Positions 28,940 through 40,022 are shown, numbered from the stretch's first letter. The stretch: 40,022 bases of DNA from an uncultured Pirellulales bacterium (GCA_964582985.1 CAZOUM010000024.1:1-40022), one strand, 5' to 3'. Notes: generated by a model not told the origin, from the letters alone. Program-made: numbers and translations.

Positions 28940-29095
28940 CCCACGGGCATAGCCCGTGGCACCTCCATCTTCGGCGGAACCCGCCGAAGCATCCGCCTAC
29001 GCTAAAGCTTCGGCGGATACCTTTTTCGCATTCATCCACGGGTAAAACCCATGGCTTTCTGCGAAGGCGGGTAAAAAAACCTATTTTTTAAAAAA
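28940..29095. other. cluster of perfect palindromes with alternative pairing potential (candidate structured RNA or REP-like element)
   Basis: CCACGGGC-ATA-GCCCGTGG (28943-28961) and CTTCGGCGG-AAC-CCGCCGAAG (28966-28986), with a third CTTCGGCGG copy near 29008-29016 able to pair alternatively with the middle arm. ATCCGCC..GGCGGAT, a second CCACGGG, and an A7/T6 tract (29073-29091) are also present. Confidence 0.35.
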
Positions 29096-32915: not shown

Positions 32916-34340
32916 ATGATGAACAATGCTGAGACATTAGCTCAGGTTGACTGGAAGCGGCGGAAGAATCGCGGCTATTACCGTGAAGTCGACCGATGTT
33001 ACACCTCTGTCGTGCCCCAGGGCGTTCGCGTCCTCGAGCTCGGCTGTGCCACGGGAAGACTCCTCGCCGCCACTCGCCCGTCCTACGGCCTCGGAATCGA
33101 CATCGACACCCAGCAAATCGAAACCGCCAAAAAGATTCACGCCGACCACAGCGAATTAGAGTTTCGCGTTGGTGACGTCGAGGAAATGGATTTCGCCGGC
33201 ATCGAGCCTTTCGATTGTATCATCATCTCCGACGTCCTGCCGCTCTTACGTGACATTCAGAAAACGCTGGCCCGCCTGCACGCGGTTTGTATGCCGCACA
33301 CCCGGCTGATTATCACGTATCACTCCAACCTTTGGCGGCCGGTACTTGCCATAGCCACACTCCTCAGACATCGCTCGCCCGACCCGTCTTACAATTGGCT
33401 TTCCACACACGACATAGAAAACTTATTGCATCTGGCCGATTTCGAGGCCGTCACACATTCCGGCCGCACACTCTTGCCAATACGCCTGCCCGGCCTCGAC
33501 TGGATAATGAATCGCGTCCTTGCCAAGATGCCCCTGCTTAACAAATTGTGTCTGACCTGGCGAATTGTCGCCCGTCCCCGTCCCCAGGTTAGCTCCGAGA
33601 AGAAAGATTCCGATGGGCCCACAGTCTCAATCGTTATCCCAACCCGCAACGAAAAGGGCAATATCGAACCAGCCTTCACCCGCACCCCAAAAATGGGCAA
33701 GTGGACGGAACTTATTTTTGTGGATGCGCACTCCGACGACGGCACCATTGAAGAAATCAACAGGTGCACCGAAAAATACGGCCGCCAATGGCACCGCATC
33801 CTCCTGCTTCACCAAACCGCCCACGGCAAGGGACAGGCCGTCCGACAGGGCTTCGCCCAGTGTCACGGTGACATCTTGATGGTTCTCGACTCCGACCTTA
33901 CAATGCCCCCCGAGGAGCTGACAAAGTATTACAACGCCATTGTCTCCGGAAAGGGTGAGTTTATCAACGGCTGCCGGCTCGTCTACCCAATGGAAAAAAA
34001 GGCCATGCGTTTTCTTAACATGATTGGCAATTACTTTTTTGCCCGCCTCTTCACCTGGCTCCTCGAACAGAGCATAAAGGACACCCTTTGTGGAACAAAG
34101 GTCTTATGGCGCCGCGACTATCAGAGAATCGCTGCAAACAGGTCATACTTCGGCGATTTTGACCCCTTCGGTGATTTCGACCTGCTCTTTGGTGCATCCC
34201 GCCTCAACCACAAGATTATCGATTTGCCCATCCGTTACCGCGAACGCACCTACGGCCAAATAAAAATCCATCGCTGGCAGCACGGCTGGCTCCTCCTGAA
34301 AATGAGTTTAGTAGCCTTCTGCAAACTCAAACTGTCCTGA
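32916..34340 (+). CDS. fusion protein: class I SAM-methyltransferase (N-terminal) + family 2 glycosyltransferase (C-terminal, DPM1-like)
   Basis: N-terminal RVLELGCATGRLL is MT motif I. C-terminal VSIVIPTRNEKGNIE....FVDAHSDDGT....VLDSDLTMPPEE are the GT2 DxD/DSD motifs. Confidence 0.8.
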   Translation: MMNNAETLAQVDWKRRKNRGYYREVDRCYTSVVPQGVRVLELGCATGRLLAATRPSYGLGIDIDTQQIETAKKIHADHSELEFRVGDVEEMDFAGIEPFDCIIISDVLPLLRDIQKTLARLHAVCMPHTRLIITYHSNLWRPVLAIATLLRHRSPDPSYNWLSTHDIENLLHLADFEAVTHSGRTLLPIRLPGLDWIMNRVLAKMPLLNKLCLTWRIVARPRPQVSSEKKDSDGPTVSIVIPTRNEKGNIEPAFTRTPKMGKWTELIFVDAHSDDGTIEEINRCTEKYGRQWHRILLLHQTAHGKGQAVRQGFAQCHGDILMVLDSDLTMPPEELTKYYNAIVSGKGEFINGCRLVYPMEKKAMRFLNMIGNYFFARLFTWLLEQSIKDTLCGTKVLWRRDYQRIAANRSYFGDFDPFGDFDLLFGASRLNHKIIDLPIRYRERTYGQIKIHRWQHGWLLLKMSLVAFCKLKLS

Positions 34341-34465
34341 CCATACTTGTCCCGAGCGACGAGCGACGAATTTGCCTTCCTACAAATTCTTATTGCCTTT
34401 TCCCACTCTTGATGCTACTATTGTCCTAAATCTGCCTATAAAAAAGGATATCGGAAAACAGCGAA

Positions 34466-37400
34466 ATGGCAAACGTACCTATTAGAGTCATAGAGCTTGT
34501 CGAAACCTTCGACCGCAACATTGAAGCCTACAAAAATCAGCAATACAAAGAGGCACAGCTTTGTCGCGAATTTATAGACCCATTTTTTCACGCTCTCGGC
34601 TGGGATGTTGCAAATGAAAAAGGGTACGCTCCTGCCTATAAGGACGTCATACACGAAGACGCCATAAAAATAGGTGGTTACACTAAAGCTCCGGACTATT
34701 GTTTTCGCATCGGCGAGACGCGCAAGTTCTTCCTCGAAGCTAAGAAACCCTCCATCGACATAAAAGGCGACCCACACCCCGCTTACCAGTTGCGCCGTTA
34801 CGCCTGGAGTGCAAAGCTGCCACTCTCAATCCTTACCGACTTTGAGGAATTTGCCGTTTATGACTGCCAAATCCGTCCCAAACAGACCGACAAGTCTGGA
34901 ACTGCCCGAATTATGTATTACACCTATAAGGACTACATCGACAACTGGGACAAGATCGAGACCATTTTCAGCAAGGACGCAATTAAGAAAGGCTCATTCG
35001 ATAAATTCGCGGCCGCAACCAAAGGAAAACGCGGCACCGCCACTGTTGATAAAGAATTCCTCGCAGAAATCGAAAAATGGCGCGAAATGTTGGCCAGAAC
35101 CATCACTATCAAAAACATATCACTATCAAGGGATGAAATAAACTTCGCCGTCCAGCGAACCATTGACAGAATCCTGTTTTTGAGGATGTGCGAGGACAGA
35201 GGTATCGAGCGATACCAGCAACTTTTAGGCGTAACTAACGGCCGACAAATTTATCCCAGGTTATGCCAGCTTTTCAGGCAGGCCGATGCAAAATACAACT
35301 CAGGCCTGTTCCATTTTCGCCACGAAAAGGGTCGGGCCGAAGGCCCGGACGAACTTACACTAACCCTCGTTATTGATGACACCCAATTGGGATGGATTCT
35401 TCGCAGTCTCTATTATCCGGGCTGCCCCTATGAATTCTCTGTCCTTCCCGCAGAAATCCTCGGCAATGTCTATGAACAGTTTTTAGGCAAGGTTATCCGC
35501 ATAACTCCCGGCCACCAAGCCAAAATCGAAGAAAAACCCAAAGTTAAAAAAGCCGGCGGCGTTTACTACACACCAAGTTATATAGTTGACTACATCGTAA
35601 AAAACACCGTCGGCAAACTCTGCGAAGGCAAAGACCCCAAGCAAATCTCAAAACTAAAAATCCTCGACCCCGCCTGCGGCTCAGGCTCATTTCTGTTAGG
35701 TGCCTATACATATCTGCTAAACTACCATCGGGATTGGTACGTCCAGAACAATCCCAAAAAGCATACAAAACAAATATATCAGGGCAAAGGCGCCCAGTGG
35801 TTCCTCACCATCGCCGAGAAAAAAAGAATCCTCTTAAGCAACATCTTCGGCGTCGATATCGACTCCCAGGCAGTCGAAGTAACAAAACTATCCTTATTAT
35901 TAAAAGTCCTCGAAGGCGAAACCAGCGAAACCATCGGCCAAACCTATCGAATGTTCCACGAACGTGCCCTCCCCGATTTGGGCAACAATATAAAATGCGG
36001 CAATTCTCTCATCGGCCACGACTTTTTCGATGACTACCAACGTTTAGCCCCCGCACCTGTGGCGGGGGGCTCACACGAAACAACAATTCCTAACGACCTC
36101 TACCAAAAAATAAACCCCTTCGACTGGGAAGCTGAATTCCCCCAAATCTTCTCCGGCAAAAACCTCGGATTCGACGCCGTTATCGGAAATCCACCGTATA
36201 TCCGAATCCAACGAATCGGCCACGAAGAATCCGATTATCTCTTCGCCAAATATAAAACTCCAGCTAGTAAAACCGATCTCTCACAATTATTTCTTGAACG
36301 CTCTCTAATCCTTGCAAACAAAACCGCCATCATTGGTTTCATTTGTACTTCTCAATGGATAGCAACCGATTATGGGAAGAACATGCGCCGAGTATTATCT
36401 AATGGAGTACTCCATGAGATTGTTGACTTCGGTTCTCTCCCAGTTTTCCAAAAGGCAAGTACCTACCCCGCAATTTTTATTCTCAGCCCATCACGGGCTA
36501 AATCTTTGCGTATCAAAAAGATCACGTCACCCAACCAACTTAACCTTTCTAAAATCGAACAGATATGTCCCCGGCAAATCAATCTCGAAAACCTCTCAGA
36601 AAAACCATGGAATCTAGCCAAACTGGATATTCCTCAAACCCTCGACAGTCATGGTGTTGTATGGGAACCACTGCAGGCTTTTGGCAATACTTACATAGGT
36701 GTCTTGACTGGAATGGATGCTGCCTTCGTTCTACCAAAATCAGACACCAATCGACTGGGCCTTGAAGATGAAATCCTACTTCCATATGCCTATAAAGGCA
36801 AAGAGGTTGTTCGCTACCAAACAGTAACCCCCAGTTCAGTCGTCATCTACCCTTATACTCAAGCCCCTGATGGTTCCCCTGTATTGATTCCAGAGAATGA
36901 CTTGCGGCGCCGTTGTCCGTACATTTTTAAATATCTCGTCGCTCAGAAAAGTAAATTGTGCCAACGAAAAGATAGCCGGCGCCTGTATGCTACCGGTTCT
37001 CACTGGTATCGCCACTTACGGCCCGGTTCATTCAAGTATATCATGCCAAAAAAACTGATCATCAAGGGAATTGACAAACGGACGGTTGTAGGTCTTCTGG
37101 ATCAACAGACTTGCTTTAATGGCGCGAACTGTCCAGCTATAATCCTCGATAAGGACCAACGTCATTTGGAATTATACATATTGGGAATTATGAATTCAAA
37201 ACTCGTTTCATTTCACCTACGCTCGATTTGCCCCTCCAAGCTAAGCGGTTACACCCGCTTCAATGCAAAAAGCATTAATGGTACACCTATTCGCACAATT
37301 GATTTTGACAGTCCGCAAGACAAAGCCAGACATGACAAAATGGTAAAGCTGGTGGAGCGAATGTTGGATTTGAACAAGAAATTGGCCGCCGCAAAAGTCC

Positions 37401-37522
37401 CTGCCGAAAAAACCCGAATCCAACGCCAAATCAACACCACCGACTCTGCAATCGACAAACTCGTTTATGAATTGTATGACCTAACAAAAGAAGAAATAGC
37501 AATCGTGGAGGGCAAAAAATAA
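34466..37522 (+). CDS. Type IIG restriction-modification enzyme: N-terminal PD-(D/E)xK endonuclease + N6-adenine DNA methyltransferase (Eco57I/TaqII-like), 1018 aa
   Basis: The N-terminus has the HsdR_N-like motif ..FIDPFFHALGWDV.. and APDYCFRIGETRKFFLEAKKP (PD..ExK). MTase motif I is ILDPACGSGSFLLG and motif IV is VIGNPPYIRIQR (NPPY, gamma-class, Eco57I-like). C-terminal tail ..IDKLVYELYDLTKEEIAIVEGKK. About 48% GC, lower than the backbone. Confidence 0.85.
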   Translation: MANVPIRVIELVETFDRNIEAYKNQQYKEAQLCREFIDPFFHALGWDVANEKGYAPAYKDVIHEDAIKIGGYTKAPDYCFRIGETRKFFLEAKKPSIDIKGDPHPAYQLRRYAWSAKLPLSILTDFEEFAVYDCQIRPKQTDKSGTARIMYYTYKDYIDNWDKIETIFSKDAIKKGSFDKFAAATKGKRGTATVDKEFLAEIEKWREMLARTITIKNISLSRDEINFAVQRTIDRILFLRMCEDRGIERYQQLLGVTNGRQIYPRLCQLFRQADAKYNSGLFHFRHEKGRAEGPDELTLTLVIDDTQLGWILRSLYYPGCPYEFSVLPAEILGNVYEQFLGKVIRITPGHQAKIEEKPKVKKAGGVYYTPSYIVDYIVKNTVGKLCEGKDPKQISKLKILDPACGSGSFLLGAYTYLLNYHRDWYVQNNPKKHTKQIYQGKGAQWFLTIAEKKRILLSNIFGVDIDSQAVEVTKLSLLLKVLEGETSETIGQTYRMFHERALPDLGNNIKCGNSLIGHDFFDDYQRLAPAPVAGGSHETTIPNDLYQKINPFDWEAEFPQIFSGKNLGFDAVIGNPPYIRIQRIGHEESDYLFAKYKTPASKTDLSQLFLERSLILANKTAIIGFICTSQWIATDYGKNMRRVLSNGVLHEIVDFGSLPVFQKASTYPAIFILSPSRAKSLRIKKITSPNQLNLSKIEQICPRQINLENLSEKPWNLAKLDIPQTLDSHGVVWEPLQAFGNTYIGVLTGMDAAFVLPKSDTNRLGLEDEILLPYAYKGKEVVRYQTVTPSSVVIYPYTQAPDGSPVLIPENDLRRRCPYIFKYLVAQKSKLCQRKDSRRLYATGSHWYRHLRPGSFKYIMPKKLIIKGIDKRTVVGLLDQQTCFNGANCPAIILDKDQRHLELYILGIMNSKLVSFHLRSICPSKLSGYTRFNAKSINGTPIRTIDFDSPQDKARHDKMVKLVERMLDLNKKLAAAKVPAEKTRIQRQINTTDSAIDKLVYELYDLTKEEIAIVEGKK

Positions 37523-38223
37523 TGATCGCCAACCTAACGGAAAACTTGGCTTTAATCGCGGCTATTGCCGCCTTGGGTGCATGGTGGGTTTCATGGCGGG
37601 AAGCTCACCGCAACAATACGGTTATTCTGAAGCTAAAGAGGTTTAGCTCATCGTTTACTCAGGATCGAGCAGGGGCATCCTACAAACTGGAAGTCTGCAT
37701 CGTCAACCGGGGAATTCAATTGCAAAATATCTTAATGTCCCTGTGGTTTCATGGTCAGGGGAGGTCGGGCAACGTTTCTATACCTATCCCACCGTCTGAA
37801 TATAGCAAAGGCGTATCCTCGACTTTTCTCAGAGGTACGACCGCAAGCTTCCTGCTGTCTGCATCCGACAAAAAGACCTCCAATTTTCTTTTAATACTTC
37901 GCGATATCAAGGAACAGCGACCCGTCATCAACCTATACAATAATTCGTTCTGGGCCTGTTCATTCCCCATTTACAGCCGATGGGACCGGCTCAAAAAGTT
38001 ATGGAACAGATTGTCGTTTAAATTCAGTTTCAACCGTCGTGTGGGTGATGGCTGCAATGGCAAAGGGGTGTTTAAATCCTACCAACTACCCTACTTCGAG
38101 ATACGATCAGAGAAATTGCAGTTCTTCCTAAATGGACTCTCCCAAAGCAATATTGACGATGCACAAACAACTTGCCGCCACAATGTCGAAGGTCCTGTAG
38201 AATCTCCTCCAGCGACAAATTGA
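37522..38223 (+). CDS. hypothetical N-terminally membrane-anchored protein (233 aa), translationally coupled to the RM gene
   Basis: The start codon overlaps the RM stop codon (TAATG). N-terminal TM segment LALIAAIAALGAWWVSW. No recognisable domain. Confidence 0.55.
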   Translation: MIANLTENLALIAAIAALGAWWVSWREAHRNNTVILKLKRFSSSFTQDRAGASYKLEVCIVNRGIQLQNILMSLWFHGQGRSGNVSIPIPPSEYSKGVSSTFLRGTTASFLLSASDKKTSNFLLILRDIKEQRPVINLYNNSFWACSFPIYSRWDRLKKLWNRLSFKFSFNRRVGDGCNGKGVFKSYQLPYFEIRSEKLQFFLNGLSQSNIDDAQTTCRHNVEGPVESPPATN

Positions 38224-38320
38224 CCAGATGGTCTACAAACTCTACGGCCTGACCGACGAAGAAATCGCCATCGTAGAAGGTGAGGATAAACAATAAGCCC
38301 GAAATCAAAGGAGTGAAAAA

Positions 38321-39238
38321 ATGAAGAGACTGCTATATCTTATTTTTGTTCTGTTTTTGGTTAGTTGTGCTTCTATAGAAGAGGCAGAAAAAGCCGACAA
38401 CAGCTACCGCCCAAAGCAGGCAACAAATAAAATCATTCACAGAGCATGGAAGGGAGTAGCAATGCCACCCATAGATCCAATACATTTGTCGACCACACTT
38501 ATTAGCAGATATCTTGATAAAGAATCCAAAGGTAATGCAACAGGTTTTTTCTTTCAGAGCGAACAGGGCTCCATATATCTTGTGACTAATAAACACGTTA
38601 TTTACGGGGATAATTTTTATAAGGATGAGGCGGTACCGGAAATAGATAAAATAGATATAACTCTTCACGTCAACAGGAATGATCTATCACAAAACAAGAC
38701 AATAACAATTGGTCTGTTTAAGAAGGAAAATAGGCTATGGAGGGAGCACTCCAGGAAAGATATTGACATAGTATGTATACCTCTTGACTTGGACAGAAAT
38801 AAGTATCTTTTCGCTTTGGCGGACGAAAGTCTTTTAGATGCTTCCAATATAAAAATAGGTTTTGAGAAAATATTCGTGATGGGTTACCCATACGGCTGGC
38901 ATGATTCCCTGCACAATCTCCCTATTACAAGAATTGGCCATCTATCAAGCCCATTTGGAGTGCCTTTTCACGGATACCCTTTTATGCTTGGAGATGTGGA
39001 AACACACCCAGGAATGAGCGGTAGTCCTGTATTTATGCATCTCGTTGATTATGTAACTGTCGATAAGGACAAATCAACTCGGCACATGGGTCAGTCTAAA
39101 ATTATTTTACTTGGAGTTTTTTCTGGTCAGCCTTTATGGGAAATAAAAAATAAGAAGACGAACGAAACCATTACGATCCCTCACTCATTAAGTATAATTT
39201 GGTTTGGTGACTTAATAAAAGAGATAATTGGGGAATAA
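38321..39238 (+). CDS. trypsin-like (S1/chymotrypsin-fold) serine peptidase lipoprotein
   Basis: RBS AAAGGAG 38306-38312. Lipobox LFLVSCAS. The catalytic triad context is LVTNKHVI (His), DIDIVCIPLD (Asp) and GMSGSPVF (Ser, GDSGGP-like). About 36% GC. Confidence 0.65.
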   Translation: MKRLLYLIFVLFLVSCASIEEAEKADNSYRPKQATNKIIHRAWKGVAMPPIDPIHLSTTLISRYLDKESKGNATGFFFQSEQGSIYLVTNKHVIYGDNFYKDEAVPEIDKIDITLHVNRNDLSQNKTITIGLFKKENRLWREHSRKDIDIVCIPLDLDRNKYLFALADESLLDASNIKIGFEKIFVMGYPYGWHDSLHNLPITRIGHLSSPFGVPFHGYPFMLGDVETHPGMSGSPVFMHLVDYVTVDKDKSTRHMGQSKIILLGVFSGQPLWEIKNKKTNETITIPHSLSIIWFGDLIKEIIGE

Positions 39239-39265
39239 AGAAACAAACGGTTTGGGAGAATTGAT

Positions 39266-39625
39266 GTGAAATCAACTATAATCATATCGATTATATGGCT
39301 GGTTTTTACTTTTATCTTTGTGAAGCTTGGACGCTCACACTGGGAGCAATCAAAACGGGTGATACCAAAACTTGAAGTTAAAAAGCTTTTAGGTGGTGGC
39401 AGTGATATTACAAAGGGCGGGGTATCTATAGAAAAACCTTTTCAAGATTTCGCAAATGAGTTTAACAACAATTATCTTGAACAGCAGAATAAGTCAAATT
39501 TTGAAGCAAACCGCAATGCAGCTTTCGGCTATTTTGTTGCTTCACTTACTTCCTTGTTTGCGGTGGTGCTTGAATGGGTATCCTATATATCTAAGCGAAA
39601 AAGCCGAATATTACAAAAAAACTGA
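39266..39625 (+). CDS. small two-TM membrane protein (119 aa), hypothetical
   Basis: N-terminal TM IIISIIWLVFTFIFV and C-terminal TM FGYFVASLTSLFAVVLEWV. AT-rich. Copy 3 of the RM tail module follows immediately. Confidence 0.4.
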   Translation: MKSTIIISIIWLVFTFIFVKLGRSHWEQSKRVIPKLEVKKLLGGGSDITKGGVSIEKPFQDFANEFNNNYLEQQNKSNFEANRNAAFGYFVASLTSLFAVVLEWVSYISKRKSRILQKN

Positions 39626-39821
39626 CCAGATGGTCTACAAACTCTACGACCTATCCGAAGAAGAAAGAGATATTGTGAAAGGACATATTTAAGTAGAATG
39701 ACGAAGCAATCACCGCCCACGACGGCTGGCCAGTAAAATAGGGCCCAAAAAAATCCTTGTTCTTTGCTGCTCAAATCCACAAAAGAGTCTCATTTCCCAC
39801 TTGATATTTGATAGTAGTTGA

Positions 39822-39845
39822 GTTAAGTATGTACGCACATACTTA
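39822..39845. promoter_or_regulatory. perfect 10-bp inverted repeat TTAAGTATGT-ACGC-ACATACTTAA (operator-like palindrome)
   Basis: Exact palindrome in the AT-rich intergenic region at the window end. Function unknown. Confidence 0.25.
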
Positions 39846-40022
39846 ATTACTTAATCACTTTATATGGACCTGCGAAATTTATGCCTAAGGTACTTGTGCC
39901 CAAGGTATCCGTGGTTAATAAATTCTTTCAGTCAGCTTCAAAATAGTTGCATTAAACAAAATGCGACTGTGGACGCAGGCAAAAATTTGTGACAAAGCTG
40001 GCTTTGGGAGCAAAATTTGCCG

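Follow-up and report, generated by a model that had tools for sequence, protein, structure and literature searches.

Orphan copies of a Type IIG gene end at a Pirellulales restriction-modification locus, probably left by serial recombination without an integrase

Results

A Type IIG gene whose 3′ end is present three times

The stretch of DNA analysed here (the window; 40,022 nucleotides from an uncultured Pirellulales bacterium, GCA_964582985.1, CAZOUM010000024.1:1-40022) carries an intact Type IIG restriction-modification (RM) gene whose 3′ end is present three times: at the true gene end (copy 1, or t1) and further downstream as two orphan fragments, t2 and t3 (copies 2 and 3). Gene X, which encodes a 233-residue protein and is coupled to the RM gene, separates t1 from t2; a protease gene and a gene for a 119-residue protein, together called cargo 2 here, separate t2 from t3 (Table 1). 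An earlier note, made from the sequence alone, had read this arrangement as the repeated insertion of cassettes that restore the 3′ end of the RM gene, and the copies and genes that it listed were all located as it had claimed. The same arrangement is found on 10 independent metagenome contigs (100% or 99.98% identical) from different samples and assemblers, which excludes an assembly artefact.

Table 1. Features of the RM locus, in window coordinates.
Feature	Position	Strand	Remarks
Type IIG RM gene, intact, 1018 aa	34466..37522	+	nuclease, N6-methyltransferase, TaqI_C recognition domain
Variable recognition-domain segment	36200..37294	+	not alignable with relatives
Conserved RM C-terminal module	37295..37522	+	from TIDFDSP, aa 944; contains copy 1 (37449-37512)
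Gene X, 233 aa	37522..38223	+	predicted membrane-anchored beta-sandwich protein; start on RM stop (TAATG)
Tail copy 2 (t2)	38135..38296	+	orphan relic, ~54 codons; tblastn E 3e-7; core at 38221-38246
Right edge of the block common to relatives	38277..38278	+	inside t2, directly after ..IVE codons
Trypsin-like serine protease open reading frame	38321..39238	+	Pfam Trypsin_2; PADLOC candidate PDC-S45
119-aa two-helix membrane protein	39266..39625	+	full length; TGA stop = first three bases of core
Tail copy 3 (t3)	39619..39692	+	orphan, last ~22 codons of an RM/methyltransferase gene, DQMVYKLYDLSEEERDIVKGHI*; core at 39623-39648

The three copies can be compared in register over 64 nt (copy 1, Table 1; copy 2, 38217-38280; copy 3, 39619-39682). 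Over this length, identity to copy 2 is 67% for copy 1 and 81% for copy 3. The open reading frame (ORF) of the RM gene ends in ..IDKLVYELYDLTKEEIAIVEGKK* (asterisks denote stop codons). As the earlier note had stated, copies 2 and 3 share an identical 26-nt core, which occurs exactly twice and had no match in 100 shuffled sequences; t1 does not have it. The first three bases of the core are the TGA stop of X in t2 and of the 119-codon ORF in t3. The identity of t2 and t3 (52/64 in total) is unevenly spread, with 29 of the first 30 nt matching and then 23 of 34 (Fisher p = 0.003), and the run of 26 identical nt gave a permutation p of 0.011.

The RM homology of t2 starts at ~38135/38150 by tblastn. 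Its reading is DSPKAILTMHKQLAATMSKVL*NLLQRQIDQMVYKLYGLTDEEIAIVEGEDKQ*, beginning ..DSPKAILTMHKQLAATMSKVL*NLLQRQIDQMVY.., with in-frame stops at 38129-38131 and 38198-38200, and the final ~29 codons of X lie within it in a different frame. The earlier note had placed copy 2 exactly at the X stop, which is true of the start of the core and not of the extent of the copy. It had also proposed an RQI junction as the crossover point. This junction is not the 5′ edge of copy 2: compared with the relic of a related locus, L008, seven codons (NPTDRQI) are missing there. Upstream of t3 no RM homology was detected. The 5′ edges of the relics thus vary, lying ~22, ~54 and ~63 codons before the stop, and the fixed insertion site implied by the earlier note was not borne out.

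A conserved block with breakpoints inside the RM tail

The RM protein contains, in this order, the Pfam domains HSDR_N, N6_Mtase, Eco57I, MmeI_Mtase and TaqI_C, and matches the PADLOC profile REase_MTase_IIG PDLC03604 over residues 7-1013 (E 2.4e-235). Its predicted architecture is that of a Type IIG (Eco57I-like) enzyme, with an N-terminal nuclease, a gamma-class N6-adenine methyltransferase (MTase) and a C-terminal recognition domain. A search of its last 185 residues against PDB sequences found nothing.

The locus was compared with ~20 related loci (labelled L0xx), all of them on metagenome contigs from different organisms. The N-terminal/MTase part of the RM gene was mostly 70-77% identical to those of L008, L020, L023, L033 and L036, with two short stretches at 84-86%. 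Blastn of ~36200-37297 against the same five loci gave no match, although the flanks align. DNA homology resumed at 37297-37334, and the block from this edge to 38167-38278, which comprises the last ~75 codons of the RM gene, X and t2, was 79-91% identical to the relatives. On the right, blastn homology ended inside t2, at 38278 against L008/9 and at 38277 against L033-35. Beyond the ..IVE codons the final codons differ (GEDKQ*, ENYKD*, SQSI*), and so do the downstream genes in every context. The upstream genomic neighbourhoods of the compared RM loci are unrelated. GC content changes in steps, from ~0.50-0.56 in the chromosome to 0.44-0.49 in the RM gene and X and 0.35-0.40 in cargo 2 (with t3), and the second step (~0.46 to ~0.38) coincides with the end of t2.

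Shared and independent events in related loci

The in-frame stop of t2 (MSKVL*NLL) is common to the window, L008/9, L022 and L033-35. The junction between X and t2 thus had a single origin, with this identical stop kept in several lineages. Truncated derivatives of t2 also occur: L019/20/36 retain its 5′ part only, and L023-26 retain only ..ILYNLTKEEIKIVEESTK*. Across lineages, the copies group by type, t1 with t1 and t2 with t2. In L033-35, where X is 86% identical, and in L008/9, the RM-X-t2 series is present and the protease gene, the 119-aa gene and t3 are absent. These loci and L020 therefore resemble empty sites; they lie in other genomic contexts and do not represent sister strains.

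A pair of relatives, L019 and L020, records an independent event with a different cargo and an imported tail. Starting 63 codons before the RM stop, the two are 98.9% identical over a 1114-nt stretch. Upstream of this point L019 has two extra parts, a 113-aa membrane ORF and a foreign second C-terminal module (left copy), whose identity to the L020 tail is ~79%. In the right copy of L019, identity to L020 is only ~69% over the first ~40 nt and then rises to 99%. This jump within the right copy puts a homologous crossover inside the L019 module. The iterative process postulated by the earlier note is upheld by its recurrence in relatives and by comparators without cargo (L033-35 and L008/9; L020 without the L019 insert), and its view that a tail had been imported holds for at least one upstream tail, the left copy of L019.

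In L022 and L023, the stop of the relic overlaps the ATG (ATGA) of two different downstream genes, which implies that these genes were once coupled to a complete RM gene. Such an overlap fits a history in which an old RM body was displaced and its tail and accessory gene were kept better than one in which cargo was inserted into a tail.

The exact core had a single match in a one-genome-per-species collection, in L007, a Pirellulales metagenome-assembled genome (MAG), where it lies at a true gene end. The core is therefore ordinary tail-coding DNA and not the special att site that the earlier note had taken it for. The match extends to 31 nt of t2 (window 38216-38246), identical to the functional gene end at L007 3425-3455 on the minus strand; this identity suggests recent exchange or gene conversion of the tail allele across distant genomes. 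L033 has the same core in its t2 (25/26) and no t3 on its contig. This single t2 copy of L033 matches t2 of the window at 56/64 positions and t3 at 49/64. Window t2 is a mosaic, because its first 30 nt are closest to L007 and t3 (30/30 to L007, 29/30 to t3, 20/30 to L008-t2) and its last 34 nt are closest to L008-t2 (28/34). Tblastn of the 67-aa tail against plasmids found nothing; in four distant plasmid-borne RM homologs (30-33% identical) the tail is degenerate and orphan copies are absent.

Gene X and its contexts

Gene X has 37 homologs (44-87% identity), conserved to about residue 205 and variable afterwards. Since the family is conserved only this far, the present C-terminus of X is a read-through into the t2 relic. 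One homolog, P0007 (aligned to window ~38130-38210), has ~15 codons in the frame of the relic (DSPKAILTMHKQL) and then returns to the X frame. This frame switch would imply two compensating indels and little constraint on the last ~25 codons of X. Conservation of the relic (~80-87% identity) is about what the four-fold sites of X (identity 0.69-0.91) predict, so that nothing speaks for a coding or RNA function of t2. Terminator and promoter scans gave background levels.

No Pfam or PADLOC match to X was found. An AlphaFold2 (AF2) model (pLDDT 76.6) consists of an N-terminal transmembrane (TM) helix and a generic beta-sandwich, and with no informative PDB match a function could not be assigned from this fold. 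X stands directly after Type IIG genes, with start and stop overlapped, in L008/9, L020, L023-26, L029 and L033-36. It also occurs between a Type III-like methylase gene (mod) and a ResIII helicase gene (res) in L012/13 (L012 6031-6708), beside HEPN/MNT genes and an N4/N6-MTase fragment in L011 (8001-8573), and alone in a DarTG/SNF2 island in L010 (8001-8717). In L021 and L022 it is accompanied by a partial upstream tail relic (~11 and ~38 codons, respectively) and no RM gene. The family is a candidate RM accessory or defence gene, because it is repeatedly coupled start-to-stop with methyltransferase-containing genes and is also found in defence islands. Both the core and X were absent from viral contigs.

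Cargo 2

The protease matches the PADLOC candidate defence gene PDC-S45 (E 1e-32, residues 46-283 against profile positions 9-250 of 293), so an anti-phage role is putative. Most of its 180 homologs have 258-265 aa and start at the equivalent of M48, and the protease probably starts there as well (38462). The 47-aa N-terminal extension of the ORF (38321-38461), MKRLLYLIFVLFLVSC.., has a lipobox-like signal and is missing in most of these homologs. The 119-aa protein has two predicted TM helices. It had been considered as a truncated partner gene, which is ruled out by the length of its 11 homologs (112-121 aa); the family was absent from viral contigs.

The orphan RM ends thus bound genuine, unrelated genes, as the earlier note had proposed. 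It had also regarded cargo 2 as a tail-flanked cassette. As a recurrent cassette of this kind cargo 2 was rejected, since its genes are also found in other places where tails are missing. No RM tails lie near the four closest relatives of the protease on long contigs (L014, L016, L017 and L018; 73-85% identical), which stand in other defence-like surroundings with unrelated partner genes. A 68%-identical homolog of the 119-aa protein, in L037, has neither protease nor tail nearby. The C-termini of the X, protease and 119-aa families all end without the tail peptide motif.

All genes at these RM tails are predicted to encode membrane or secreted proteins. The 113-aa ORF of L019 (321-662) is multi-TM, the L022 gene (1248-1815) has N-terminal TM helices and the 228-aa protein of L023 (2355-3041) has a C-terminal TM helix. 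This character may be a shared functional theme.

Absence of site-specific machinery

No integrase, transposase or recombinase was found among the genes of the RM island, 20 other main ORFs of the window or the called genes in the ~8 kb downstream of the window. An inverted-repeat search of 34000-40022 found no inverted repeats or attC-like structures at the tails; the tail repeats are direct repeats of coding sequence. The locus therefore has neither the IntI-type recombinase with attI nor the attC-like repeat at each cassette end that define integrons, and it shows no internal integrase, identical att core at both borders or fixed position, as integrase-mediated 3′-end-restoring elements do. 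Of the proposal in the earlier note, the scars, their iteration and the restoration of the 3′ end stood, and the att-like or integron-like mechanism did not.

In neither the L019/L020 pair nor the window copies are both repeats near-identical to a single target, as a long target duplication would leave them. The locus does have the conserved anchor and the downstream orphan 3′ fragments, each with its own partner gene, of a displacement array. It also has the breakpoints in conserved segments (37297-37334, 38277 and inside the L019 right copy) that accompany spread of such arrays by homologous recombination. A polymorphic toxin tip with a cognate immunity gene is absent, the host being an RM enzyme. 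The locus works like the displacement arrays of Rhs and type VI secretion system (T6SS) loci and is not a member of them.

Surroundings of the locus

Downstream of t3 lies a repeat-rich, strain-variable spacer of ~2 kb (window 39788-39852; L001 13375-14874; L002 11086-11647 and 12723-12808), which ends at a tRNA-Leu(CAA) gene. In L001 a stretch of 943 nt is duplicated and a 68-nt unit is present in additional copies. Similar repetitive extragenic palindromic (REP)-like units follow t2 in L008 and X in L019, and are also present in L033 and at window ~28985-29017. Past proB, outside the window, come AIPR (abortive-infection) and SieB-like genes (L001 17234-21107; L002 14481-18354); since these are on the same contigs, the RM locus would be part of a larger defence region near tRNA-Leu. 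The otherwise identical contig L001 also lacks 203 bp (window 33834-34036; L001 7623/7624) inside a methyltransferase-glycosyltransferase fusion gene, which shortens the called product from 474 to 347 aa.

Discussion

We believe, with some reserve, that the three tail copies are probably the scars of serial, integrase-free recombination anchored in the conserved 3′ module of the RM gene. What the sequences show directly is the relics and whether their origins are shared or independent, where the tail module is broken, the comparators that lack each cargo and the lack of recombinase genes; the pathway, whether homologous or homology-facilitated illegitimate recombination, and the direction of each event we infer. 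Type IIG genes of this family have a conserved C-terminal module of ~75 codons, usually followed by a small accessory gene overlapping the RM stop. Incoming DNA from a related RM locus would pair via conserved RM sequence, and its far end would join illegitimately or, given an existing relic, by homologous crossover inside the tail module. The first join may have been homology-facilitated illegitimate recombination, with the relic later serving as right-hand homology arm. The incoming RM end would keep the enzyme intact, and the incoming RM gene and its coupled accessory gene would take over the locus. The last 20-65 codons of the resident gene, together with its accessory gene, would be pushed downstream as an orphan.

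Read from left to right, the window would then hold the current RM gene and X, t2 as the end of the previous RM gene, the protease and 119-aa genes, and t3 as the end of a still earlier RM/MTase gene. The relics would stay recombination-active, which would account for the mosaic t2 and for the core common to t2 and t3. Recombination of an RM-X-t2 unit into other RM tails would likewise give the common edge after ..IVE with different coupled genes behind it. The repeated breakpoints in the C-terminal module and the variable 5′ edges of the relics argue for general recombination in conserved coding DNA rather than for a site-specific enzyme. Sequential displacement is the most economical history.

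Several points weigh against this history. For the unit of protease, 119-aa gene and t3, insertion of cargo plus tail fits about as well as displacement of an RM body. A donor locus in which tails flank cargo 2 was not found, its relatives in L014, L016-L018 and L037 being without tails. The comparators come from different organisms, so an 'empty site' here means the same module elsewhere and not the same chromosomal site. The 26-nt identity of t2 and t3 could reflect shared ancestry of one tail allele rather than crossover or conversion; the core in L033 t2, at 25/26 and with no t3 on the contig, is a case in point. Outside the clade the comparison covered only the four distant plasmid-borne RM loci, none of which has orphan tails. 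As for the insertion alternative, a simple form of it, Campbell-type integration of a circle carrying tail and cargo into t2, fits poorly. It predicts that the 3′ part of t3 is the ancestral t2 end, whereas the 3′ part closest to the L008 and L033 t2 copies belongs to t2.

The tails could be passive remains of tandem complete RM/MTase genes, in which random deletions left gene ends by chance and tail homology had no role. Several RM genes are frequent in defence islands, and the relics do carry stops and deletions and are conserved at a roughly neutral level. Chance deletion sits badly, however, with the fact that t2, t3, the orphan tail of L019 (L019-tB) and the t1 relics of L021 and L022 all represent the extreme 3′ end down to the native stop and that no other RM fragments are detectable. 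Nor would it account for the breakpoints that separate lineages, which lie within the tail module to either side of X and within the right copy of L019, or for the foreign left copy of L019, and we consider it unlikely. Very unlikely, in our judgement, is integration of small circles that carry a replacement RM end at an att-like core in the tail, by means of a recombinase encoded elsewhere. Each cargo is bounded by direct repeats, the core begins exactly where each cargo's last gene has its stop codon, t2 and t3 are most alike in the 5′ 30 nt and relatives without cargo 2 exist. Yet neither the 40 kb nor the ~8 kb downstream holds an integrase, transposase or recombinase, the tails lack inverted repeats and attC-like structures, the edges of the relics and of the common block differ, and t1 is without the core. 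The core moreover lies inside an ordinary gene end of another organism and in L033 t2 with no cassette next to it, and the protease and 119-aa genes are found elsewhere without tails.

Less probable still is an insertion of cargo into an RM tail with local duplication of 60-190 bp of the target (Nobusato/Furuta type). RM-linked insertions with long direct repeats and no mobility genes have been described (PMC2853133), but of the two L019 copies only the right one lies in the stretch that matches L020 at 98.9%, the left one having ~79% identity to the L020 tail. In the window, t2 and t3 match at no more than 52 of 64 positions, and t3 and the L033 single copy at 49, and the grouping of t1 with t1 and t2 with t2 copies across lineages also speaks against local duplication. 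Finally, the downstream genes might carry the peptide as a functional C-terminal motif, or sequencing error might have split one gene into frameshifted pieces, and P0007, a called homolog, does use the relic frame in part. The motif is missing from the ends of the X, protease and 119-aa families, the relics contain stops and lie out of frame, and the sequence is identical on 10 contigs. Both of these explanations, which the earlier note had named as ones that would overturn it, can hardly be entertained.

Beyond serial displacement, the ~75-codon 3′ modules may act as portable homology arms that confer integrase-free cassette mobility into related RM tails while restoring the gene end. An accessory gene with a functional module to its left and a relic to its right could then move by ordinary homologous recombination. 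We regard this extension as tentative and, on balance, doubtful. The membrane proteins carried in this way, X and others, might be functional partners of the RM enzyme.

Integrase-mediated islands restore the 3′ end of tRNA or tmRNA genes, and integrons form cassette arrays. The present locus is like both in that a gene 3′ end stands at both borders of the cargo, the target remains intact and units stack beside it. Unlike them, it has no integrase, fixed crossover point or attC-like structure, and its repeats are diverged coding DNA. The closest parallels lie in Rhs C-terminal displacement (Jackson 2009, as cited in PMC5361080) and in the sequential displacement of T6SS effector-immunity modules (Kirchberger 2017, PMC5361080). 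There, as here, incoming DNA is anchored by a conserved portion of a long gene, and a new variable end takes over together with its partner gene. The displaced 3′ end and its partner come to lie downstream as orphans, arrays grow as this is repeated, and no integrase takes part. For the T6SS arrays it was proposed that homology-facilitated illegitimate recombination builds them and homologous recombination spreads them, and an integron analogy was raised and then dropped for want of an integrase (PMC5361080). The differences are that a Type IIG RM enzyme is the host here, that it is the conserved extreme 3′ module and not the pre-toxin core which is repeated, that small membrane or protease genes take the place of immunity genes as passengers, and that the orphans encode no functional domain.

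Among RM systems, allelic substitution and substitution of Type IIG recognition domains by homologous recombination at conserved flanks (Furuta 2010, PMC2853133) and domain movement by recombination at conserved motif DNA (Furuta & Kobayashi 2012, PMC3467074) resemble the locus, which has a variable recognition domain between conserved segments, breakpoints at segment edges and unrelated genomic contexts. Stacked orphan 3′ ends bounding downstream accessory genes are not described in the available portions of these two papers. The insertions with long target duplication (PMC2853133) share with the locus long direct repeats that flank genes and the lack of mobility genes; here, unlike there, the repeats are not duplicates of one target and one copy is imported. 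The embedded defence genes of Payne et al. 2024 (10.1101/2024.01.29.577857) are likewise small candidate defence genes nested at or in RM loci, a likeness seen in X between Type III-like mod and res (L012) and in the protease match to PDC-S45. A term search of that source gave no mention of recombination, truncation or gene-end duplication. Tail relics suggest a possible mechanism of embedding for this RM family.

The earlier note knew of no comparable accretion at an RM gene tail. This overstated the novelty, since Rhs C-terminal displacement, T6SS effector-immunity arrays and RM substitution had already been described; for stacked orphan 3′ ends at a Type IIG gene, no description was found. 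The finding reveals no new kind of mobile element. Defence islands turn over fast, and it is common for small defence genes to be nested in RM systems or next to them, where the mechanism of nesting is rarely visible. At this locus and its relatives, the breakpoints inside one conserved coding stretch are revealed, and the orphan gene ends keep a record of the order in which events took place. Should the pattern prove general, orphan tails of RM genes could be cheap markers for dating and ordering the acquisitions of a defence island, and could flag new RM-coupled accessory genes such as X. If the 3′ modules do act as homology arms, this would explain how small defence genes become embedded at RM loci.

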